This document shows positions 13,641-41,511 of a DNA stretch of 64,000 nt, in pieces (positions within the stretch are counted from its first letter, which is position 1; each line of letters begins with the position of its first letter). Source of the stretch: a bacterium (lineage in GTDB: Bacteria; UBA8248); assembly GCA_022825065.1 (NCBI GenBank), contig JAJDYR010000018.1:33606-97605 (forward strand), written 5' to 3'. The translations under genes and the position numbers were made by a program. Under the pieces are notes generated by a model. The model did not search any database, had not been told where the DNA came from, and saw nothing but the letters and a program-made list of their open reading frames with translations.

Positions 13641-13967
13641 TGCCGTTATCCTGGAGTCCATGAGCGCGACTCCCCGGCGGGAAAAAGCCCCCCTGAGGAG
13701 GTCAAACGCGAGCGGGGAACGGGTGTCGAACGCGACTGGTGAAGGAGCGATCGAAGATTTTCCGGAAGGGTTCGCCGCCCTCACTCCCGCTCCATCGCCG
13801 CATCCCATGAGAAAGCCTCTTCTTCCTGCGCACCGGTCCGCCGGGGAAAACCCCTTCCCCGCGTCGCGCGCACGATACCGCAGTCCGCTGTTTCGGGAGT
13901 GACGGCAATTGCGGGGAAATGCGGGTTGATTTCGAGAGGGCGGGGTTGTTGAAAAATTTCATCAAAG

Positions 13968-14092
13968 GAGCAACCCCCCCTACCCCCCCTTGTCAGGGGG
14001 GTATAAAAAGGCAATGCGCCCCTGCCGGGCTGAGGGGGTTTTGATTTTTCTTGCCCCCCTGACAAGGGGGGGTAGGGGGGGTTGGTTTTCGA
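13968..14092. repeat. MITE-like inverted-repeat element, copy A
   Basis: Left arm AACCCCCCCTACCCCCCCTTGTCAGGGGGG and right arm CCCCCCTGACAAGGGGGGGTAGGGGGGGTT are reverse complements flanking a ~50-bp spacer (tataaaaaggc..gcgcc..gggctgagggggttttgatttttcttg). Confidence 0.8.
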
Positions 14093-15339: not shown

Positions 15340-15532
15340 GAAAACCAACCCCCCCTACCCCCCCTTGACAGGGGGGTATAAAAAGGCGATGTGCCCTCGC
15401 TGGGTTGAGGGGGTTTTGCTTTTTCTCGCCCCCCCAGCACCACCATACTTGAATCATCGCGCCATTTTAGCTGAGGGGGGTTTGATTTTTCTTGCCCCCC
15501 TGTCAAGGGGGGGTAGGGGGGGTTGCCTTTAT
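15340..15532. repeat. MITE-like inverted-repeat element, copy B (with internal partial duplication)
   Basis: Same terminal inverted repeats as copy A, including the gaaaaccaacc left flank and ggttgcctttatc right flank. The spacer contains a duplicated gggttgagggggttttgc segment. Confidence 0.8.
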
Positions 15533-17194: not shown

Positions 17195-17330
17195 GAAAAC
17201 CAACCCCCCCTACCCCCCCTTGTCAGGGGGGCAAGAAAAAGCAAACCCCTCTCAGCATGGCGGGGACGCATCGCCTTTTTATACCCCCCTGTTAAGGGGG
17301 GGTAGGGGGGGTTGCCTTTATCCCCTGAGG
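17195..17330. repeat. MITE-like inverted-repeat element, copy C (spacer in opposite orientation)
   Basis: Same terminal inverted repeats. The spacer is the reverse complement of copy A's spacer. Confidence 0.8.
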
Positions 17331-19464: not shown

Positions 19465-19600
19465 GATTGGTCGGAAAACCAACCCCCCCTACCCCCCCTT
19501 GTCAGGGGGGTATAAAAAGGCGATACGCCCCCGCAGGGTTGAGGGGGTTTTGCTTTTTCTTGCCCCCCTGTTAAGGGGGGGTAGGGGGGGTTGGTTTTCA
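19465..19600. repeat. MITE-like inverted-repeat element, copy D
   Basis: Terminal inverted repeats with GAAAACCAACCCCCCC / GGGGGGGTTGGTTTTC extensions. Confidence 0.8.
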
Positions 19601-19942: not shown

Positions 19943-22498
19943 CTATTCCTTCATGTAGCGCGTGCCGAATGCGCCGGCTACTGCGCCATTAGAGAAATTC
20001 GAGTTGAACTCACCCACCAGAACTGGGGGCGGTGCTACACCAGTTCCAACAGCCTCACCATCACCGGAGAATGTCCCCGACCAAGTGGACGTATCAGATG
20101 CCATGCCCTTTGATGTTCCGGTAATGCTGGCAGAACTAAGAACACCAGATGCGGTCGCCATGGTTACTTCCCACTCGTTGGCCTCTCCGCCTGATAGTTC
20201 AAAGTCCGAAATTGTCCCATGCACGGAATTGTGTTTGTCTGCGGCCACGGAAGTCTCTGCCCCGAAATAAGCCGTAAGGGCTACGTCCGCCGTGAACGTT
20301 CCTGCAGACCTGGCATCAAGAGAATTATCTGGATTCACGGTGTTGTAAACGTATACTCCGTGAGCGCCACCTTCATATTTCGCGCTTCCAGCTACAACAC
20401 TTCCTATATTCGTATTAGCGTCAAGACTTGAACCAGCGAAAGTCTGAACGGCATCGTAGGTGGTTTTGCCATCCTTGACGGTTTTCATGAGCCAGAAGCC
20501 ATAGTGCAGGTAATCATCATCCGCTACGGATACCATGGCCCCTGCGTCTGGCTTGAACTGCCATTCGCCCGTAATAGTGGTTATTTTCCCGTCCGCGTCG
20601 GTGACTGCCGTACAAGCGGCATTCACACATTCGAATGTTCCAGCCGCACCATCAAAAGTTCCCCTAAACTCACCTTCATTTCTATTTTCGGTTGTAGTGT
20701 CATCAGCAGGCAAGTTTGTGGTAGTAGTAGGCGCACTTGATATTCTGCTGGAAGCTACCTTGCCCACATCCGCCGTTTCGTCCAATTCATATGTGGTGCG
20801 TTGGTCACCAGTCCTCTCTGGGTCAGCGTCTCCCACCGTAAGAGTATACACAGAACTAAACGGCTCTGATTCAGGCGCCTCAATATCTGTCATGACACTT
20901 ACTATTTCTGAAACTCCTTTTCCGTTATCACGGACATACTTACCGTCCATCATCACGAACTTGGGGTCATTTTTCAGTGGCAAGGCAGGGTCCGTAACTT
21001 CTACCGATACAGAACCACTTTTATGAGAAATCTTCAGGGTATATTGATCGGCGGCATCAGTATCATCGAATGCCGGCGAGGTGGCGTCAGGCGTGGCGGT
21101 TGATTCAGCCGTTATGGCATCCGCTTTAGTCTTGACCATTTCATTCATAGCCTTTTTCGCAGCCGCCGCTTCCTCCATTTCTTCTTCTTCACGCCTCTTT
21201 TCTTCAGCTACTCTATCGGCCTCTTCCTTGGCGGCTACAACCATTCCGGCGAAACGCTCAACCGCAGCTTTTGCGGTCTCGGCTTTAGCCTGGGCGGCTT
21301 CCGCGTCAGCCGATGTAGTGGCGGCCGCGGCTTCATCGTTCGCGGCTTTCGCGTCCGCGACGGCATCTTCCGCCCGCGCGTAAGAGGCTTCGTCAGCAGC
21401 TTTCTGCTCATCCGTGAGGGCCGCAAGCGCCGCCTTCGCGTCCATGTACGCCTGCATGGCGGCCCCCTGCGCGGTCGAGAGCGCGGTCGCTTCCATGTGC
21501 GCGACCGTCACCATGCTAGCGTATTTCCTGGCATCGGCCAGCGCGCTTTCGGCGGCCATCTGGGCGGCTTCCGCATCCGCCGCTGTTTCGGCATTTTCCG
21601 CCCTTACTTTCGCGGCAAGCGCGTCCTCGAGAGCTCTCATGGCTATGTTGTAAGAAACGGAGTCGGCATCGCCTTGGCCCGCGATTGCATCCAGTGCAGC
21701 CTGCGCGGCATTAGCGGCCACTTCCGCGGCACCACGAGCGACTCTTATAGCGGACATTTCGGCCGCCAGATTGTCGGCAGCCGTTTTCGCGTCCGCTACC
21801 ATGTCGGCGTATCTCTGGACATCTGCGAGCGCGGCTTCCACGTCCGCCTGGGCAGCCTTCGCGGCTTCCGATGTGGTTGCCGCGTTCGCCATTGCGAGTG
21901 CTTCTTGAGCGGCCTCGTTCGCGACCTTGGCTCTCACGTATGAGTCGATGTCATGGGCTTTATTCGCCTCTGCGTCCGCCAATAAACTGGCCGCCATATC
22001 GGCCGCAGTCTTTGCGGCTTGCTTGGCGGTATCGAGCGCCATGGCTTCTTGCTGCCGATCCATTTCTGCCTGATCGGCCGCGGTCTTCGCGTCCGCTACC
22101 ATGCCGGCATACTTTTCAGCATCCGCTTGGGCCGCTTCTGCTTTCGCCTGCTCCGCCTTCGCAGCTTCCGATGTGGTTGCGGCTGCGGCCGCGTCACTCG
22201 CGGCTTTCGCGGCCGTGAGAGCGATTCGGGCTGCAGCATATGAGTCTGGATCGACACTCGCATCCGCCATCACGCCATCGACCGCCGTCATGGCAGCCGT
22301 ATACGCCGCCTTGGCGGCATTCTGCGCGGCTTCGAGAGCGGCGGCCTCGGCCGCGATCTCCTCATCCGTCGGGCCGGTCATCGGCGGTTCTGCCGTTCCG
22401 CTACCTCCGCCGCCGCCGCAGCCCGCCAGCGTCAGCGCGAACACGGCCGCCAGCGCGAAAGCGTAGAACTTGTGAATATACTTGTGTTTGAACTTCAT
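19943..22498 (-). CDS. Surface lipoprotein with Ala-rich internally repeated coiled-coil region and TbpB-like C-terminal beta-barrel domain
   Basis: Lipobox LTLAGC after the signal peptide. ~4 internal repeats of ~100 aa (TTSEAAKA..EKYAGMVADAKTAAD), also visible as DNA repeats at ~21700-21850 and ~22020-22160. C-terminal 300 aa is Gly/Ser/Thr-rich and ends ...GEFNSNFSNGAVAGAFGTRYMKE, like TbpB/fHbp-type handle-barrel lipoprotein C-termini. The 3' third of the gene is ~50% GC against ~65% locally. Confidence 0.75.
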   Translation of the reverse strand: MKFKHKYIHKFYAFALAAVFALTLAGCGGGGGSGTAEPPMTGPTDEEIAAEAAALEAAQNAAKAAYTAAMTAVDGVMADASVDPDSYAAARIALTAAKAASDAAAAATTSEAAKAEQAKAEAAQADAEKYAGMVADAKTAADQAEMDRQQEAMALDTAKQAAKTAADMAASLLADAEANKAHDIDSYVRAKVANEAAQEALAMANAATTSEAAKAAQADVEAALADVQRYADMVADAKTAADNLAAEMSAIRVARGAAEVAANAAQAALDAIAGQGDADSVSYNIAMRALEDALAAKVRAENAETAADAEAAQMAAESALADARKYASMVTVAHMEATALSTAQGAAMQAYMDAKAALAALTDEQKAADEASYARAEDAVADAKAANDEAAAATTSADAEAAQAKAETAKAAVERFAGMVVAAKEEADRVAEEKRREEEEMEEAAAAKKAMNEMVKTKADAITAESTATPDATSPAFDDTDAADQYTLKISHKSGSVSVEVTDPALPLKNDPKFVMMDGKYVRDNGKGVSEIVSVMTDIEAPESEPFSSVYTLTVGDADPERTGDQRTTYELDETADVGKVASSRISSAPTTTTNLPADDTTTENRNEGEFRGTFDGAAGTFECVNAACTAVTDADGKITTITGEWQFKPDAGAMVSVADDDYLHYGFWLMKTVKDGKTTYDAVQTFAGSSLDANTNIGSVVAGSAKYEGGAHGVYVYNTVNPDNSLDARSAGTFTADVALTAYFGAETSVAADKHNSVHGTISDFELSGGEANEWEVTMATASGVLSSASITGTSKGMASDTSTWSGTFSGDGEAVGTGVAPPPVLVGEFNSNFSNGAVAGAFGTRYMKE

Positions 22499-24044: not shown

Positions 24045-24215
24045 AAAACCAACCCCCCCTACCCCCCCTTGTCAGGGGGGTATGAAAAAGCGACACCCCA
24101 GCGAAGGGAAAAAGCGACACCCCGGCGAAGGGGGAAAAGAAAAGAAGGTCCCCCCGACAGGGGGGAGCAAAAAAAGACCCCCCTGACAAGGGGGGGTAGG
24201 GGGGGTTGCCTTTAT
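24045..24215. repeat. MITE-like inverted-repeat element, copy E (1.5-copy variant)
   Basis: Left arm, then a spacer with an extra half-arm (ccccccgacaggggggagcaaaaaaagacccccctgacaagggggggtagggggggttgcctttatc). Confidence 0.8.
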
Positions 24216-33527: not shown

Positions 33528-33680
33528 GGGGATAAAGGCAACCCCCCCTACCCCCCCTTGTCAGGGGGGTCTTTTTTTGTTCCCCCCTGTCGGGGGGACT
33601 TTTTTTCTTTTACCCCCTTCGTCGGGGTGTTGCTTTTTTATACCCCCCTGACAAGGGGGGTAGGGGGGGTTGGTTTTCAA
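33528..33680. repeat. MITE-like inverted-repeat element, copy F (variant spacer shared with copy I)
   Basis: gataaaggcaaccccccctacccccccttgtcagggggg ... cccccctgacaagggggggtagggggggttggttttc. Confidence 0.8.
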
Positions 33681-33781: not shown

Positions 33782-33999
33782 CTACTCCGACCCTCACGAA
33801 CTGAACGAGATCGCTCTGTAGGGGCCGCATATTATGCGGCCCTGCCTTTTACCGACAAAACACGGGACCGTCCCCTGCAATTCAGGTGGCACCCCGCCGG
33901 CATGACGACAGTGGGTCATCTCGAGAAGTTGAAAAATAGTAACGTATAAGTTACCTTTATCGAATGATCGAGATACCGCATACACGAGGAGAACTAACC

Positions 34000-34317
34000 A
34001 TGCCACTCACGCGGGATTTCAGGGAAACGATTCAGGCAAGGGTTCAGCGCGACCCGGCCTTCCGGGAGGAGTTGTTGAAAGAAGGAGTCGAATCCCTCCT
34101 CTCGGGCGAGATGGAAGTCGGCAAGGCGGCCCTGCGCGATTTCATCAACGCGACGGTGGGCTTCGAGACCCTGGGTTCTCTCACAGGGAAATCACCCAAG
34201 AGCCTCATGCGCATGTTCGGGCCCGATGGCAATCCACAGGCCAGGAACCTCTTCGACGTCATCGCCCGGCTCCAGGAAAGCGAGGGGCTCAGGCTCGAAG
34301 TGCGCGCGGTTCGTTAG
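34000..34317 (+). CDS. Putative addiction-module antidote protein (HTH antitoxin of the RelE/ParE-like killer family), apparently orphan
   Basis: MPLTRDFRETIQARVQRDPAFREELLKEGVESLLSGEMEVGKAALRDFINATVGFETLGSLTGKSPKSLMRMF...VRAVR follows the conserved pattern of this antidote family. No toxin-sized ORF lies upstream; only REP units at 33822-33848 do. Confidence 0.6.
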   Translation: MPLTRDFRETIQARVQRDPAFREELLKEGVESLLSGEMEVGKAALRDFINATVGFETLGSLTGKSPKSLMRMFGPDGNPQARNLFDVIARLQESEGLRLEVRAVR

Positions 34318-34387: not shown

Positions 34388-34540
34388 GGCAACCCCCCTC
34401 TTGTCTGAGGATAAAGGCAACCCCCCCTACCCCCCCTTAACAGGGGGGCAAAAAATGCAAAGCCCCCTCAGCCCGGCGAAGGCGCATCGCCTTTTTATAC
34501 CCCCCTGACAAGGGGGGGTAGGGGGGGTTGCCTTTCAAGA
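34388..34540. repeat. MITE-like inverted-repeat element, copy G
   Basis: Left-arm partial duplication (ggaaaggcaacccccctcttgtctgaggataaaggcaaccccccctaccccccc) and the canonical right arm. Confidence 0.8.
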
Positions 34541-35648: not shown

Positions 35649-36128
35649 ATGCCGTATTACATCACCAAAGCGAGCCTCGAGGGGCTGCGACAGAAGGTCG
35701 AACAGATTCAGTACCGCCTGAAACATGAGGTGTCGAAAGAGATCGGCAGGGCGGCGAGCCTGGGCGATCTGAGCGAGAACGCCGAGTGGGAGGCGGCCAT
35801 CGAGCTGCAGGGCAACCTCAAGAACGAGGTGAGCCGGATCATGGACAAGATACGCGAGGCGAGCGTCATCGAGGAACTCCCCATCGCCGGCGACAGGGTC
35901 ACCATCGGCACGAAAGTCACGCTCTTCGACCTGGACAAGAACGAAGAGCTGACCTACGAGATACTGGGCGAGGAGGAAAGTGACCTCCCCAACGGGGTCA
36001 TCTCCTTCAGCGCGCCGCTCTCGCGCGGGCTCATGCAGAAAGAACCGGGCGATGAGGTGGCGGTTCAGTTGCCCGGCGGCGTGAGAAATTTCGAGATCGT
36101 GGACGTCGTAAAAATCGAATTTCCCTGA
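35649..36128 (+). CDS. greA: Transcription elongation factor GreA
   Basis: N-terminal coiled-coil (SLGDLSENAEWEAAIE) and C-terminal FKBP-like domain; 159 aa. Confidence 0.85.
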   Translation: MPYYITKASLEGLRQKVEQIQYRLKHEVSKEIGRAASLGDLSENAEWEAAIELQGNLKNEVSRIMDKIREASVIEELPIAGDRVTIGTKVTLFDLDKNEELTYEILGEEESDLPNGVISFSAPLSRGLMQKEPGDEVAVQLPGGVRNFEIVDVVKIEFP

Positions 36129-36133
36129 TTCTC

Positions 36134-36907
36134 ATGAGACGGCTCGATATCGGCGACAGGCTGCTTGCGTATCTCCTCTTCGCGGCGGCGGTCGTTCTGG
36201 TCACCTTCTTCGCGTTCCAGCACGAATTACCGCGGGAATGGCATCTGCCGGGTTCCCCGACGCTGTATCTGCTCGGCGTCGCGGGGACGCTCCTCCTGTG
36301 CGTGTCTCTGGTGTTCGTGGTCACGAAGCGGACGGGCGTCGGCGGCTCTCCCCTCGGCTGGTTCTCCGCCCATGTCGTGACGGCCACCCTGGGCGGCGTG
36401 CTGGTGACGATCCACTCGGGCGGCTTTCTCCGCTATGCGCCGGCGCTTTTGCTCGCAGCGCTTTTGCTTCTGGTGATCCTGGGCGTGTGGGCGCGCGTCC
36501 GCCTCTCCAGGCAGATGTCGGCCACGTTCGCCTCGAGGGAGCAATCCTTCTCCCCGCCCGGTTCCGAAGACCGGGAGCGCCTGGCTCATCTCATTCAAGA
36601 AAAAGAATCTTTGTTGGCGAGGCTCGATCCTGGAGCGGACGAGGGCACCTTTTCCCCCAGGCCCAAGCACTGGTTCTCAAGGCCCGCGCTCACGTTCGCC
36701 TACGCCCGGTTGATCGGCCGGGAAAACAGGTTGCTGGGCACCCGCGCAGGCGTTTCTGCCGCGCAGGCGTACTGGCGGATGGTCCACATCGTTTTGGCGT
36801 TCGCCTTCGTTCTCGGTATTGTGGGGCACGTCGTCACCGTCACGTTTTTCGCCGGTTATGTCTCGGGCGGTGGAGAGGTATACTGGTGGCACCTGACGAA
36901 ATGGTAG
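36134..36907 (+). CDS. Hypothetical integral membrane protein
   Basis: 257 aa with at least 5 predicted hydrophobic helices; no recognisable family. Confidence 0.55.
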   Translation: MRRLDIGDRLLAYLLFAAAVVLVTFFAFQHELPREWHLPGSPTLYLLGVAGTLLLCVSLVFVVTKRTGVGGSPLGWFSAHVVTATLGGVLVTIHSGGFLRYAPALLLAALLLLVILGVWARVRLSRQMSATFASREQSFSPPGSEDRERLAHLIQEKESLLARLDPGADEGTFSPRPKHWFSRPALTFAYARLIGRENRLLGTRAGVSAAQAYWRMVHIVLAFAFVLGIVGHVVTVTFFAGYVSGGGEVYWWHLTKW

Positions 36908-36998
36908 CCCGCGTGGTCGGGTTGTTGGGAAAATCTGCCTGCGGAGGGGGCGGGGAGGTTGGTTTTGTAGGGGCGGCGAAAGAGGACGCTTCTCTCGA

Positions 36999-37200
36999 CC
37001 GGAAAGGCAACCCCCCCTACCCCCCTTAACAGGGGGGTAAAAAAAGACGATGCGCCCCGCCGGGCTGAGGGGGCTTTGCTTTTTCTTTCCCTCCTGACGA
37101 AGGGGGTAAAAAGACGACGCCCGCTGACGGAGGGGTTTTTGGTTCTTCATACCCCCCTGACAAGGGGGGGTAAGGGGGGGTTGCCTTTATCCCCTGACTA
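36999..37200. repeat. MITE-like inverted-repeat element, copy H (1.5-copy variant), ending 40 bp upstream of the molybdoenzyme start codon
   Basis: ggaaaggcaaccccccctacccccttaacagggggg ... atacccccctgacaagggggggtaagggggggttgcctttatcccctgactaagggggg. Confidence 0.8.
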
Positions 37201-37239
37201 AGGGGGGCCTTTTCGACACCCCTCTTCAAGGAGTGATTC

Positions 37240-40191
37240 TTGAGCAAGCTGGCCTTGATGATCGATCTGGAGCGGTGCTTCGGCTGCAAGAGCTGTGAGG
37301 CGGCCTGCAAGCAGGAGCACAGGCTGGGCCCCGGCGAATACCGGAACAAGGTCGTCTGGCTGGGGGACGCTTCCACGGGGACGCCTGATTTCCTCACGCT
37401 GACGTGCCAGCATTGCGAGCGCCCCGCTTGTCTCAGGGCCTGTCCCGTTCATCCCAAGGCGATTACCAAAGACCCCGATACCGGCGTGGTGGAGGTTCAC
37501 GAGGCGCTTTGCACGGGTTGCGGGGAATGCGTCATGGCGTGTCCCTACAGCGCGATGGGCTATGACGCGCAGGGGCATCATTCGGTGAAGTGCGACCTCT
37601 GCCCCGACAGACGGGAGAAGAATCTGGAGCCCGCCTGCGCCGAGATTTGCCCGGGCTACGCCATCTCGTTCGGCGAGAGGGAGAACCTCCTCGAAAAGGC
37701 CCATCAGGAGGGTCGGAGCCTTCGGGATCACGATCATTTTCTCCTGAAGCCGCAGACGATTTATCTGGAGAAAATCGCGAGAGAAAACGGCCGCGTAAAC
37801 GGCGCGGAAAATTCAAGTTCGTCTGAAAGCCCGAATCGGCCCAAGTTCGTGGAATCCCCCGAAGCGAACGGCGTTTTCCGGGAGAAAGGCCCCGATTTCC
37901 CCTACCTGCACGACAAGAACGCGCTCAAGGCGGACCGGGTGGAGCCGGGGGGATGTAATTTCTGCTTCAACTGCTGCACCGCCAAGTTCCATTTCCAGGG
38001 CGATAAGCTCATCAACGTGACGGGGAACGATGAAGACCCCGTCCTGGACGGAAAAATCTGCCCCAAGGCGCAGTTCACGCTGCAGCTCCACCACAACGAA
38101 CACCGCCTGCAATATCCCTTGAAGCGCGTCGGCCGCCGGGGCGAAAATGCGTTCGAGCGCATCACCTGGGAGCAGGCGCTCGATGAGATCGCCGCGAAAC
38201 TGGGGGTCCTGAAGGAAAAATGGGGCACGGAGGCGCTGGCGATGTTCGTCGGGACCCGAACGGGCCTGATTACCCAGAAAGGCTATGCGCGGCTGTTCAG
38301 CCAGATGTGGGGAACGCCGAACCTCCAGGGGACGGACCCGTTCTGCGCGGCGGGCAAAGTGGTCGCCTACGAGGTGACGCACGGGATCAACGGCAACGGG
38401 AACAGCTACACGTCCGAGGATATCGGCAGCGCCGGGATGTATCTCTACGTCGGGGACAACCAGGCGGAGACGCGGCCAGTCTACTTCGGCAAGGTGAACG
38501 ACTGGCGCATCAGGAACAAGACCCCGATGGTCGTGGTGGATCCCAGGTACACCGCCACGGCGAGCAAGGCGGACAAATGGCTCGCCATCCGCCCCGGCAC
38601 CGACATGGCGCTCGGCCTCGCCATGGCGCACCATATTCTCTCTGAAAATCTGCACGATGCGCGTTTCTGCGACGAATGGGTGCTGGGCTGGGAGCGCTGG
38701 CGCGATTTCATATTCTCGAAGGGCTATTCCCCCGATTGGGCGGAAGCCATCACCGGCATAGCAGCGGATGAGATTCGCGCGCTCGCCGGGGACGTGGCCA
38801 AAGCGGACGGCTGCGTCATCTTCGGGAGCCGGGGACTCAACCAGCACACCAACTCGGTGCAGACCAACCGGACGTTCATGTTCGTCGCCGCGATAACGGG
38901 GAACTGGGGCCGAAAGGGCGGCGCCTACGTGAACATGACGGCGGGGCCGCCCATCGCCGCCAACGCGCCGGAGAACAGACGGGCAGAGATTCAGAAGCCC
39001 ATGGTGCGCAGGAGCCCGGCCGGCTGGCTGAGCGCCATGCGGGAGGGCAAGCCGTACCCGATTAAAGGCCTCATCACGTGCAACAACCCGCTCGCGCAGT
39101 GGCCGGGCCAGGACGAGGCGCGCGCGGCCTTCAAAGCGCTCGACCTCATCGTCCACATCGAGTTGTTCGCGAACGAGACCTCGGCCTATGCGGATTACGT
39201 GCTGCCCGCGGCGGGCGGGATCGAGAAAGGCGAGCTGGGCCGCACGAACGACGACAGGAGAGTCGTCTGGATCGACAAGATGATCGACCCGCCGGGAGAG
39301 GCGAAGCCCGACGGGTGGATATGGACGGAACTCGGGCGGCGCCTGGGGTTCGGCGACGTCATGAAAGAGGAATACAAGGACCCGGGCAAGTTCTGGGACG
39401 AGATGTGCATCGACAACGATTTCCTGCGGGGCGTGACGCAGAAACGGCTCCACTCGGTCCCCTACCGGTGGGTGCGGTTCCCCGTCGCGAGCGAGGACGC
39501 CCCCGAGCAGGAGACGCTTTATCTCGAAGGAACGACCGCCACGGGGCAGCCCGAGGGCAAGCGCTTCCCCACGCCGAGCGGGCGGCTCGAGTTCTGGACG
39601 GAAGCGTTGGAGGAAAAATTCAAGAAAGTAGGACTCTCGGCGCTGCCGGAATTTTACAGCGAGAAGGAGAATCTCCTGGGGTTGCCGTATCTCGAATATG
39701 AACACGAAGATGATGATCTGGAAGTCATCTCCCCCTTCTCCAAGGCGCCGACGGGTTCCCGCGCCGCCAGAATCGTCCAGCCGGATGGGGAAAACCCAAG
39801 TGATGCGCTTCGCGCGCAAGGCTTCGGGACGACGCTGATAACGGGCCGCCCGCCCGCGCCGCATTTCCACAGCTGGACGCATTATTTCTGGCAGGCGCAG
39901 GAGATGTGGCCCGACCTCTATTGCCAGATACATCCCGAAAAAGCGGGGGAACTGGGAATCGAAGACGGGGAGAAAGTCCGGGTGGAGACGGCGCACGGCG
40001 CCATCGAGGCGATGGCCTGGGTGAATGCAGGGATAAGGGAAGACGCGGTGTACGTCCCCATCGGCTGGGGGGAGCGCCAGCCCTACCATCCCTGGCGGTC
40101 GGTGAATTTCCTGACGGACATCGCGCAGCGCGACCCGTGCTCGGACCAGACGAATCTGAAGAGCTTGCTGTGTAGAATCTCAAGGGCGTGA
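37240..40191 (+). CDS. Molybdopterin (bis-MGD) oxidoreductase catalytic subunit with N-terminally fused four-cluster [4Fe-4S] ferredoxin domain; no Tat signal
   Basis: Residues 1-~160 carry four Cys clusters (CFGCKSCEAAC; CQHCERPACLRACP; CTGCGECVMACP; CDLCPDRREKNLEPACAEICP) like FdnH/PsrB-type beta subunits. From ~residue 230 the GGCNFCFNCCTAKFHF cluster and the molybdopterin oxidoreductase / MGD-binding domains follow in one continuous 983-aa ORF. No twin-arginine leader and no in-frame TGA. Confidence 0.8.
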   Translation: MSKLALMIDLERCFGCKSCEAACKQEHRLGPGEYRNKVVWLGDASTGTPDFLTLTCQHCERPACLRACPVHPKAITKDPDTGVVEVHEALCTGCGECVMACPYSAMGYDAQGHHSVKCDLCPDRREKNLEPACAEICPGYAISFGERENLLEKAHQEGRSLRDHDHFLLKPQTIYLEKIARENGRVNGAENSSSSESPNRPKFVESPEANGVFREKGPDFPYLHDKNALKADRVEPGGCNFCFNCCTAKFHFQGDKLINVTGNDEDPVLDGKICPKAQFTLQLHHNEHRLQYPLKRVGRRGENAFERITWEQALDEIAAKLGVLKEKWGTEALAMFVGTRTGLITQKGYARLFSQMWGTPNLQGTDPFCAAGKVVAYEVTHGINGNGNSYTSEDIGSAGMYLYVGDNQAETRPVYFGKVNDWRIRNKTPMVVVDPRYTATASKADKWLAIRPGTDMALGLAMAHHILSENLHDARFCDEWVLGWERWRDFIFSKGYSPDWAEAITGIAADEIRALAGDVAKADGCVIFGSRGLNQHTNSVQTNRTFMFVAAITGNWGRKGGAYVNMTAGPPIAANAPENRRAEIQKPMVRRSPAGWLSAMREGKPYPIKGLITCNNPLAQWPGQDEARAAFKALDLIVHIELFANETSAYADYVLPAAGGIEKGELGRTNDDRRVVWIDKMIDPPGEAKPDGWIWTELGRRLGFGDVMKEEYKDPGKFWDEMCIDNDFLRGVTQKRLHSVPYRWVRFPVASEDAPEQETLYLEGTTATGQPEGKRFPTPSGRLEFWTEALEEKFKKVGLSALPEFYSEKENLLGLPYLEYEHEDDDLEVISPFSKAPTGSRAARIVQPDGENPSDALRAQGFGTTLITGRPPAPHFHSWTHYFWQAQEMWPDLYCQIHPEKAGELGIEDGEKVRVETAHGAIEAMAWVNAGIREDAVYVPIGWGERQPYHPWRSVNFLTDIAQRDPCSDQTNLKSLLCRISRA

Positions 40192-40279
40192 CCTGTCCGA
40201 GGTCGCGATTTGTCCTATCGGTCGGATTTGAAATTCACTCCCCCCTTGAGTGGACTGTTGAAAAAGCATTTATCAAAAG

Positions 40280-40425
40280 AATAACCCCCCCTACCCCCCC
40301 TTAACAGGGGGGTCTTTTTGTTGCTCCCCCCTGTCGGGGGGACCTTTTTTTCTTTTACCCCCTTCGTCGGGGTGTTGCTTTTTTATACCCCCCTGATAAG
40401 GGGGGGTAGGGGGGGTTGCTTTTCC
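40280..40425. repeat. MITE-like inverted-repeat element, copy I
   Basis: Same arms. The spacer variant matches copy F (ggggggtctttttgttgctcccccctgtcggggggacc...). Confidence 0.8.
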
Positions 40426-40484
40426 AGTCGAGGATGATCACCACCGTCATCCGGCGGCGGGATTCCGTCTTGCCGCGCATTGGT

Positions 40485-40658
40485 GTAGGGGCCGCATATA
40501 TGCGGCCCATTGTGGGAATGGGGAAAAAGCAGGGTCGCATGTATGTGACCCCTACACGCGGGCGGGCGGCCATGGAGGGCCGCCCCTACGGCGATACGCG
40601 CGATTTCCGTAGGGACAACCCCCGTGGTTGTCCCCCAAGCCCCCGCGCCTGTCCGAGG
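40485..40658. repeat. Cluster of REP-like palindromic units
   Basis: Units: gtaggggccgcatatatgcggccc; gggtcgcatgtatgtgacccctac; gggcggccatggagggccgcccctac; gtagggacaacccccgtggttgtccc. Confidence 0.65.
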
Positions 40659-41120
40659 CTATTCAATCGGGTCGGGCTGAACGGGCACGCAGATTTCGGT
40701 CCTGGTGTCGGCCTCCGTCGTTTCGCGGGGGTCGGTGACGTAGCGGTACACCACCGGACCTCCTCTTCTCTTGAATCCGCTGTGCGGCAGCCATTGTTCG
40801 AGCATCTCCCCCAGTGTAAGCCCGAGCGTATCGTATCCCCCGATGTGCGTCCCCACCGCGTGCCATCCGCCCGGAAAGTCTGTCTCATGGAGCCCTTCAG
40901 GTCTTGGCAGGTCTGTAAGCGCTCCCCGGCAGGCTTCGTATCCCTTCTCTCCATGGTCGAGACCGCAAGCGGGGCCGATGCGGGGGAGGTTCCCGCAGAT
41001 CCTGAGCAGGCGCGCCTGTGTGAGGCCGATGGTCTCAGGCGTCGCGGGCGCGTCCGTGCGAAGCGCCCAGAGCTTCAAGGCGTTCAGTTCCAGGACTTTG
41101 ACGGCTTGTGAAGTCCTCAT
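40659..41120 (-). CDS. GyrI-like small-molecule-binding domain protein
   Basis: C-terminal ~150 aa of track ORF 40659..41252 has the GyrI/SbmC-like fold pattern (GLHETDFPGGWHAVGTHIGGYDTLGLTLGEMLEQWLPHSGFKRRGGPVVYRYVTDP). Start set at ATG 41120, just after the nifU-like stop; the start is uncertain. Confidence 0.5.
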   Translation of the reverse strand: MRTSQAVKVLELNALKLWALRTDAPATPETIGLTQARLLRICGNLPRIGPACGLDHGEKGYEACRGALTDLPRPEGLHETDFPGGWHAVGTHIGGYDTLGLTLGEMLEQWLPHSGFKRRGGPVVYRYVTDPRETTEADTRTEICVPVQPDPIE

Positions 41121-41127
41121 CGAGGTG

Positions 41128-41511
41128 TCAGCTTGCGCTTCTCGATTTGAGCGCGTTTTGGAGCACCCGCCGGGCGAGGGTGGCGCAGTGGCGTTTGTGG
41201 GTGGGGAGGCCGCCGACGCTTTCGGCGATCTCCTCCGCGGTAATTTCTCCAAGCTCCTCCGCGGTCTTTCCGCGCACCATGTCCGTCAGGGAACTCATGG
41301 CGGCGGTGATCGCCCCGCAGCCGAGAATCCGGATTTTGGCGTCGGTGACCGCCTCGCCCTCGAATTTGAGGTAAAGCGTCACCTCATCGCCGCAGGCGGG
41401 GTTCGTCCCGCTCCCCTCGGCGTCCGCGTCTTCGATGACGCCGATGTTGCGCGGGTCGGCGATGTGGCGGAGCACCGTCTCGTTATAGTGGTAGTCGTCT
41501 CGTGGGGCCAA
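41128..41511 (-). CDS. nifU: Fe-S cluster assembly scaffold, NifU/IscU N-terminal-type
   Basis: Three conserved Cys (NPACGDE, ILGCGAI, HKRHCATLA) in 127 aa. Confidence 0.85.
   Translation of the reverse strand: MAPRDDYHYNETVLRHIADPRNIGVIEDADAEGSGTNPACGDEVTLYLKFEGEAVTDAKIRILGCGAITAAMSSLTDMVRGKTAEELGEITAEEIAESVGGLPTHKRHCATLARRVLQNALKSRSAS

Follow-up and report, generated by a model that had tools for sequence, protein, structure and literature searches.

Is the molybdoenzyme gene at 37240-40191 of this stretch of DNA an orphan, or does its product work as part of a larger complex? The window analyzed here (64,000 nucleotides of contig JAJDYR010000018.1, from assembly GCA_022825065.1 of the lineage UBA8248) carries at this position a single gene that encodes a four-cluster ferredoxin domain (beta) followed by a catalytic subunit of the molybdopterin oxidoreductase type (alpha). 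A preliminary description of the sequence treated the fused beta-alpha protein as an orphan enzyme, and this did not hold up: in every informative genome the fused gene is preceded by a gene for a small membrane protein (gamma), and in a sister clade a homologue of gamma is encoded together with separate alpha and beta subunits. Because this pairing is strict, the cofactor ligands are invariant and a three-gene sister operon exists, we read the locus as encoding a putative two-subunit enzyme anchored by a haem-b protein.

The architecture of the fused protein is clear from its translation. The beta domain holds 16 Cys in four motifs (C13/16/19/23, C56/59/64/68, C91/94/97/101 and C118/121/133/137), and all of them are invariant in an alignment of 40 homologues. 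Pfam Fer4_11 covers residues 51-147 (E 1.4e-23), hidden Markov models (HMMs) of the DmsB, HybA, TtrB and NrfC types match the domain, and its best match among solved structures is PsrB (2vpw_B; 2.3e-24). The catalytic half opens with the segment CNFCFNCC at residues 239-246, and C274 is the fourth ligand of the FS0 cluster; all four Cys are invariant in the same 40 homologues, and the dedicated family Molybdop_Fe4S4 (PF04879) is matched weakly (residues 238-283, 20.2 bits vs a threshold of 22.7). The protein thus has the features of the dimethyl sulfoxide reductase (MopB) superfamily, namely both pterin domains, the FS0 motif and the 16-Cys four-cluster part, and the Pfam domains and Cys motifs confirm the earlier reading of a ferredoxin domain placed ahead of a full bis-molybdopterin guanine dinucleotide catalytic subunit. 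Mean column identity in the alignment is 74%, with every cofactor ligand invariant. The linker between the two halves (residues 178-235) is the sole poorly conserved stretch, its consensus being mostly 'x'. The protein carries no twin-arginine translocation (Tat) or Sec leader; with the first cluster motif already at residue 13, there is no space for either signal. The cluster Cys codons are all TGC or TGT, no in-frame TGA was found in the gene and the codon for the predicted metal ligand is TGC (Cys); the initial proposal that the protein has neither a Tat leader nor selenocysteine is borne out. Finally, no transmembrane (TM) segment was found in the translated polypeptide.

A fusion of this kind could in principle be an artefact of assembly or of a frameshift, or the gene could be a pseudogene, and a hidden frameshift separating the two domains had been named as a possible flaw. 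We give this explanation virtually no weight. The same protein, identical over its 983 aa, is encoded on a contig assembled from an independent read set, and the fused gene is intact and in frame in nearly all of 79 related genomes, where it is recovered as one tblastn segment spanning residues 1 or 3 to 983. The high conservation and the invariance of every cofactor ligand likewise speak against a pseudogene. Among 5.8 billion proteins searched, more than 120 full-length homologues have the same list of domains, at 65-89% identity. The open reading frame (ORF) and its fusion are therefore real. The fusion had been called uncommon; it is not peculiar to this genome and defines a family with hundreds of members over three phylum- or class-level lineages.

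Because the closest unfused relatives start within the linker, at a conserved FPY motif, and because one of them has a separate 196-aa four-cluster gene 26 bp upstream of its catalytic gene, sequence comparison indicates that the fused gene is derived from a neighbouring beta-then-alpha gene pair. Three distant MopB representatives (~30-32% identity) are likewise long: P0377 (983 aa), P0359 (1138 aa) and P0365 (1158 aa), and the catalytic match of P0377 begins at residue 220. N-terminal fusions of the beta-alpha type may have arisen more than once.

We next turn to the gene that precedes the fusion. In a Nitrospinota relative that is syntenic with the window, an alphaproteobacterial metagenome-assembled genome (MAG) and a Rhodospirillales MAG, an unannotated gene of 257-274 aa lies directly before the fused gene, and apart from this pair the three loci have unrelated neighbourhoods. 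A scan with a gamma alignment, covering one genome per species for 185,579 species, yielded 196 relatives, from which the best 80 loci were kept. These all come from MAGs of Nitrospinota, Burkholderiales/Betaproteobacteria and Alphaproteobacteria. In 79 of the 80 the gene that comes directly after gamma, on the same strand, is the fused one, and the gap ranges from -3 to about 470 bp. The sole unpaired locus stops at a contig edge 392 bp past gamma, and the pairing is hence found in 79 of 79 informative cases. Clustering of all ORFs from the 80 loci gave no third conserved gene, just shadow ORFs of the pair plus a ThiG gene confined to Burkholderiales; Pfam annotation of the neighbours in ten further loci was mixed (RND pump, ABC binding protein, ArsC-family, PhaC and AraC). 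No gene for an NrfD-type anchor was found near the fused gene in the window or in the 80 related loci, and neither a TorD-like chaperone gene in the window nor a NarJ-type chaperone gene was found near it. The preliminary description was thus right that no TorD-like gene lies nearby, while the anchor or partner it had missed is gamma; the comparison of neighbouring genomes that it suggested uncovered gamma and no third gene.

Two further loci bear on the standing of gamma. The pair is present on plasmid pRR4-35_5 of the cultured bacterium Pseudohalocynthiibacter aestuariivivens, where the two genes are 2 bp apart and the products are 52.5% (fused protein) and 38% (membrane protein) identical to those of the window. 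In a sister clade (locus L093, 2141-5860), whose catalytic subunit is 48% identical and also lacks a Tat leader, the gene order is alpha, gamma homologue, beta. This homologue has 277 aa (E 4e-19) and retains all four TM His described below. Since it lies between alpha and beta in the sister operon, gamma behaves as a genuine third subunit, and by these comparisons it is probably a conserved partner of the fused enzyme.

Some points weigh against this view and would fit a soluble, cytoplasmic orphan that is fed by soluble ferredoxin or NAD(P)H and has nothing to do with the membrane gene upstream: the fused polypeptide has no TM segment of its own, no gamma gene adjoins the closest unfused relative, which lies beside a ferredoxin-reducing pyruvate:ferredoxin oxidoreductase, and 332 bp separate the two genes in the window. 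We nevertheless consider a soluble orphan highly improbable, because the pairing persists over three phylum- or class-level lineages while other neighbours change, and because of the sister operon. The distance between the genes also speaks against it, since the ancestral spacer is 25-28 bp or the genes even overlap: spacers of 25-28 bp occur in many other Nitrospinota vs 250-470 bp in the subclade of the window, and the spacer ends and the ribosome-binding site (AGGAG) are retained whether the spacer is short or long. No plus-strand terminator-like site was called between gamma and the fused gene and several were called after the stop codon, which makes co-transcription of the two genes plausible.

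Two other arrangements of these genes were seen. At locus L091 (3791-6732), a beta-alpha gene pair without gamma lies beside genes for a CoA-transferase, a 2-oxoacid:ferredoxin oxidoreductase and an acetyl-CoA synthetase, and this pair may be a soluble, ferredoxin-linked version. Several MAGs carry two whole gamma plus beta-alpha pairs on different contigs (loci L018/L023, L043/L058, L055/L084, L082/L086 and L034/L076). The duplicates are 98% identical in one Nitrospinota-type MAG and 70-77% identical in Burkholderiales MAGs, and could be diverged paralogues or result from bin contamination.

What kind of protein is gamma? At normal thresholds neither Pfam nor NCBIfam has a match for the window protein, and Pfam gives no hit to NarI, yet the protein has 403 homologues, almost all of 257-260 aa. 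Five His are invariant among the 30-32 members aligned: His80 and His94 in TM3, His218 and His232 in TM5, and His253 near the C-terminus. The four TM His thus form two H-x13-H pairs. Hydropathy shows five TM segments, with ~20 Lys and Arg on one side vs ~4 on the other. By the positive-inside rule, this distribution places the N-terminus and a basic, hydrophilic loop of ~90 residues (123-212, between TM4 and TM5) in the cytoplasm. In the predicted topology helices 3 and 5 are parallel, so that the H-x13-H pairs could give one haem site near each membrane face, which is the classic arrangement of a di-haem cytochrome b. An AlphaFold2 model of gamma is all-helical (mean predicted local distance difference test (pLDDT) score 74). 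Weak matches to DUF4405 (PF14358) recur: the window protein matches this family below threshold (E 0.012; 16.5 bits vs a gathering score of 26.7), and matches at E<=0.1 occur in 25 of 30 family members (best 6.4e-6). For one DUF4405 protein, binding of haem b by four central His has been demonstrated with purified material (PMC11334425). We conclude that gamma would be a divergent relative of DUF4405, distant at best, and that it is probably a two-haem membrane protein.

The surroundings of gamma vary. In the window, greA (35649-36128) ends 5 bp ahead of the gamma ATG (36134), the same juxtaposition of greA and gamma is present in relative L001, and there is no obvious Shine-Dalgarno sequence ahead of the ATG; this suggests read-through or translational coupling of gamma from greA in these Nitrospinota. 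In a betaproteobacterial locus (L088, 5657-6133), a gene for FMN_red (NADPH-dependent FMN reductase) lies directly upstream of gamma on the same strand. FMN_red is among the families tied to DUF4405 in a study of flavinylation (PMC11334425).

Which reaction might the catalytic domain carry out? We placed it by rankings of HMM and PDB scores. Among solved structures the domain matches Thermus PsrA best (5.7e-60), with FdhF-type formate dehydrogenases and acetylene hydratase next. Alignment of the metal ligand, a check that the preliminary description had proposed, points to Cys369 as the predicted Mo/W ligand, which is invariant in the family and is aligned with the Mo ligand Cys173 of PsrA and with the Cys or selenocysteine of formate dehydrogenases. 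Arg531, also invariant, is aligned with Arg332 of PsrA, a residue whose role Jormakka et al. are said to have addressed in 2008. No NCBIfam family is at or near its cut-off for the fused protein or for gamma. The highest score of the fused protein is to Fdh-alpha (TIGR01591), with 311 bits vs a cut-off of 666, followed by PhsA (NF012032), with 284 bits vs 694; the HMMs for DmsA, NasC, NapA, ArrA, TtrA, NarG and others score lower (narG 53 bits vs 1084; QrcB 150 bits).

Formate dehydrogenase is therefore the first named identity to weigh, since Fdh-alpha is the top NCBIfam match and a Methylorubrum formate dehydrogenase also ranks first when an AlphaFold2 model of the fused protein (in which the ferredoxin domain is poorly modelled) is compared with the PDB by Foldseek. 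However, the TIGR01591 score is below half of the cut-off, and in Foldseek the scores of acetylene hydratase, Nap, PsrA and Arr are similar, those of the first three being practically equal to the leading one. The residue that follows Cys369 is Ala370, where formate dehydrogenases have the His of their Sec/Cys-His dyad. In addition, the segment NPLRGQNNVQG, which holds the catalytic Arg of formate dehydrogenase, Nap and Nas, is missing here (e.g., in alignment with 7bkb_D), whereas PsrA aligns without a gap in this region. We thus regard a formate dehydrogenase as very unlikely. The active site likewise lacks the signature of acetylene hydratase: that enzyme has an Asp directly after the second FS0 Cys (the catalytic Asp13), and the invariant residue at this position in the fused family is Phe243.

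When 1.84 billion representatives were scanned exhaustively with HMMER, the fused family fell into one cluster at 50% identity. Beyond it lie two cytoplasmic, unfused clades (53% and 48% identity) and Tat-bearing clades (43% and 38%), all of them unnamed, and the database names of homologues are all generic. In the Tat-bearing clade at 43% identity the catalytic gene is in an operon with PsrB-like, NrfD and TorD-like genes, and relatives P0244 and P0246 have RRxF(L/I)K leaders. By sequence, the enzyme is a Psr-related member of the superfamily that falls outside every characterized clade represented in the libraries used, with SoeA compared by description only. The earlier judgement that the substrate is unclear stands, as no family cut-off was reached and gene context, in the window and in the related loci, points to no substrate. 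The Cys/Arg active site, which resembles that of Psr, gives a hint of an inorganic S, Se, As or N compound as the substrate.

Putting these parts together, we hypothesize that gamma and beta-alpha form one two-polypeptide, membrane-bound, cytoplasm-facing Mo/W-bis-pyranopterin oxidoreductase, a reading that we consider reasonably likely. In such a complex the two H-x13-H pairs on helices 3 and 5 of gamma would most likely hold two b haems across the membrane, and its basic cytoplasmic loop would be the likely docking surface for beta-alpha, which would be kept in the cytoplasm by the lack of an export signal. The four [4Fe-4S] clusters of the beta domain would form a wire to FS0 and then to the Mo/W cofactor on Cys369. 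Via the haems, the four clusters, FS0 and Mo, electrons could thus be exchanged between a small substrate in the cytoplasm and the quinone pool, or some other carrier in the membrane or periplasm.

The direction of this flow is harder to call. A two-haem TM wire combined with a cytoplasmic active site is the layout of NarGHI, whose membrane subunit NarI has five helices and two bis-His haems b. By this analogy we tentatively favour a reductive direction, in which quinol would be oxidized at the outer face of the membrane and an oxidized cytoplasmic substrate reduced. The hosts count against it, as they belong to lineages known mainly as aerobes (Nitrospinota, including nitrite oxidizers, Burkholderiales and Alphaproteobacteria), and so does the outward conduction of electrons by cytochromes of the DUF4405/MsrQ type (PMC11334425). 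On these two grounds, a Soe-like dehydrogenase direction is nearly as likely: the same complex may oxidize a cytoplasmic reductant, for which sulfite (cf. SoeABC) is the obvious candidate, and pass the electrons to quinone or a periplasmic acceptor. General bioenergetics adds that ubiquinol is unable to drive a low-potential reduction of the Psr type. Genes related to sulfur also recur nearby, with NifU, cysteine desulfurase and CysE in the window, ThiS/ThiG in Alpha- and Betaproteobacteria and a 'putative sulfate exporter family transporter' in the plasmid neighbourhood of P. aestuariivivens. These neighbourhood signals are weak, however, and lineage-specific synteny alone may account for them. 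A two-haem TM wire would moreover be needless, and would dissipate proton-motive force, if a cytoplasmic donor reduced quinone. We therefore hold this dehydrogenase to be possible, with somewhat less confidence than the reductive direction.

Comparison with known systems shows which parts of the proposed complex are familiar. PsrABC/PhsABC (Thermus thermophilus, 2vpw) is alike in that PsrA and PsrB are the top solved-structure sequence matches for the two halves, the metal ligand is a Cys at the same position, Arg531 is aligned with Arg332, the 'GNxGRxGGxY' segment aligns without gaps, there are four [4Fe-4S] clusters plus FS0, and the nearest Tat-bearing relatives of the fused enzyme are encoded in operons of the PsrB/NrfD type. 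PsrABC is periplasmic, however, whereas the fused enzyme without its Tat leader is predicted to be cytoplasmic; beta and alpha form one polypeptide here, in beta-alpha order; the anchor of PsrABC is NrfD/PsrC (eight helices, no haem) instead of a five-helix protein with four conserved His; and the catalytic domains are ~25-30% identical. NarGHI shares the unexported active site, the cluster wire facing the cytoplasm and the small five-helix membrane subunit, features that are predicted here. Its catalytic subunit is only distantly related, though, with Asp as the metal ligand in NarG where the fused enzyme has Cys, and gamma differs from NarI in lacking the Pfam match and in the spacing of its His, with no NarJ-type gene nearby.

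SoeABC, which is found in aerobic and phototrophic Proteobacteria, is by its description also a cytoplasm-facing, Psr-related system of three modules without a Tat signal, but SoeC is a haem-free anchor of the NrfD type and SoeA and SoeB are separate proteins. SoeA has been grouped with bacterial SreA (Wells et al. 2023, PMC10100899). Cytochromes b of the DUF4405/MsrQ/PepSY-like group share with gamma four central His on TM helices and, for DUF4405, the weak recurrent matches; DUF4405 proteins described in print have six helices, and their links are to ApbE flavinylation and to partners outside the cytoplasm, whereas gamma has five predicted helices with a cytoplasmic insert of 90 aa, its predicted partner is a cytoplasmic molybdoenzyme, and the window protein falls below the Pfam threshold. 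Finally, ActB of alternative complex III and QrcB also join MopB and four-cluster modules in one polypeptide or complex for quinone chemistry (PMC10100899). In ActB alpha precedes beta, the protein is periplasmic and the Mo cofactor has been lost, whereas the fused enzyme has the beta-alpha order, is predicted to be cytoplasmic and retains all cofactor-binding features.

Table 1. Features of the gamma/beta-alpha locus and copies of the repeat family, in coordinates of the 64-kb window
Feature	Position	Strand	Basis or details
Gamma subunit candidate	36134-36907	+	257 aa, five predicted TM helices; translation, hydropathy, homologues
Spacer between gamma and fused gene	36908-37239		332 bp
MITE/REP-like element	37003-37188		186 bp; 23-nt terminal inverted repeats (AAAGGCAACCCCCCCTACCCCCC), internal CCCCCC-N-GGGGGG hairpins
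Shine-Dalgarno-like AGGAG(T)	37229-37234	+	5-6 nt ahead of TTG
Fused beta-alpha subunit gene	37240-40191	+	983 aa, TTG start
Beta domain (four-cluster ferredoxin), residues 1-177	37240-37770	+	Pfam Fer4_11, HMMs, PsrB match, invariant Cys
Interdomain linker, residues 178-235	37771-37944	+	poor conservation, low pLDDT
FS0 [4Fe-4S] motif, Cys239/242/246/274	37954-38061	+	alignments, Pfam, codons
Molybdopterin domain PF00384, residues 289-700	38104-39339	+	E 1.9e-46
Cys369 (TGC), predicted Mo/W ligand	38344-38346	+	alignment, invariance, codon
Arg531	38830-38832	+	invariant; aligned with PsrA Arg332; codon
Molybdopterin dinucleotide-binding domain PF01568, residues 865-975	39832-40164	+	E 9.7e-22
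Terminator-like hairpin over stop codon of fused gene	40187-40207	+	
Second nearby copy of the repeat family, downstream of fused gene	40286-40423		
Copies of the repeat family (at least nine)	13966-14089, 15341-15530, 17196-17319, 19475-19598, 24045-24213, 33534-33677, 34413-34535, 37003-37188, ~40286-40423		

The spacer between the two genes contains a repeat resembling miniature inverted-repeat transposable elements (MITEs) or repetitive extragenic palindromic (REP) elements (Table 1). A MITE copy had been noted upstream of the fused gene; it is real, and its distance from the start is 52 bp rather than the 40 bp first given. The terminal repeat has 17 matches in the window vs 0 expected, and the family comprises at least nine copies of 100-190 bp with G6/C6 hairpins, all apparently intergenic. 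Comparison of the window with loci L007-L026 shows the spacer to be an insertion hot spot, with hairpin repeats in some genomes and unrelated sequence in L007 and L008. Downstream of the fused gene, further terminator-like sites lie at 40293-40374, and an Rfam scan of the window gave no molybdenum cofactor riboswitch and no other family. An ORF at 40416-41111 (plus strand, 231 aa) was rejected as a gene: it begins within one of the repeat copies, has no Pfam or NCBIfam match, and shares part of its length with a GyrI-like/Cass2 gene on the minus strand (40659-41252). Another ORF without a family match, at 33964-34317 (plus strand, 117 aa), is flanked by the repeat copies at 33534-33677 and 34413-34535; in the syntenic relative L001 no gene is called at the corresponding site, between the genes for hydantoinase B and a class-IV aminotransferase. 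Elsewhere in the window, positions 20001-22000 show a local drop in G+C (0.555 vs ~0.62) and a negative GC skew, unlike their surroundings.

We found no description of the gamma plus fused gene pair in the literature searched, and the Nitrospina gracilis genome paper is silent on the module. The parts are familiar (a MopB catalytic subunit, a four-cluster protein and a putative bis-His cytochrome b), as is the logic of a complex iron-sulfur molybdoenzyme; what is new is the combination of anchor type, beta-alpha fusion and predicted cytoplasmic orientation. A bolder view, which we consider unlikely as a whole, is that the module represents a class of molybdoenzyme, for respiration or detoxification, that has so far gone undescribed. 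A di-haem cytochrome b of the DUF4405 type, a fold otherwise tied to flavinylated periplasmic systems, would then have been taken over as anchor by a beta-alpha enzyme that faces the cytoplasm; the module would have spread horizontally among marine nitrite-oxidizing and sponge-associated Nitrospinota and freshwater and soil Burkholderiales and Alphaproteobacteria; and it would catalyze a quinone-coupled reaction on a substrate outside those of characterized members.

Molybdoenzymes of this superfamily carry out much of the microbial redox chemistry of N, S, As, Se and C1 compounds, and few types of membrane anchor are known for them (NarI, FdnI and NrfD/PsrC/DmsC). The module would add another anchor type, together with an electron-transfer and catalytic subunit fused in beta-alpha order. 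Identity of ~65-70% between phyla points to a specific, selected function, and the carriers belong to environmentally important, mostly uncultured groups that include marine nitrite oxidizers. The membrane partner alters both the annotation that the enzyme should receive, as membrane-bound and probably quinone-linked rather than soluble, and its expression for biochemical work, which would require the two genes together. A cultured carrier, P. aestuariivivens RR4-35, opens the way to genetics.

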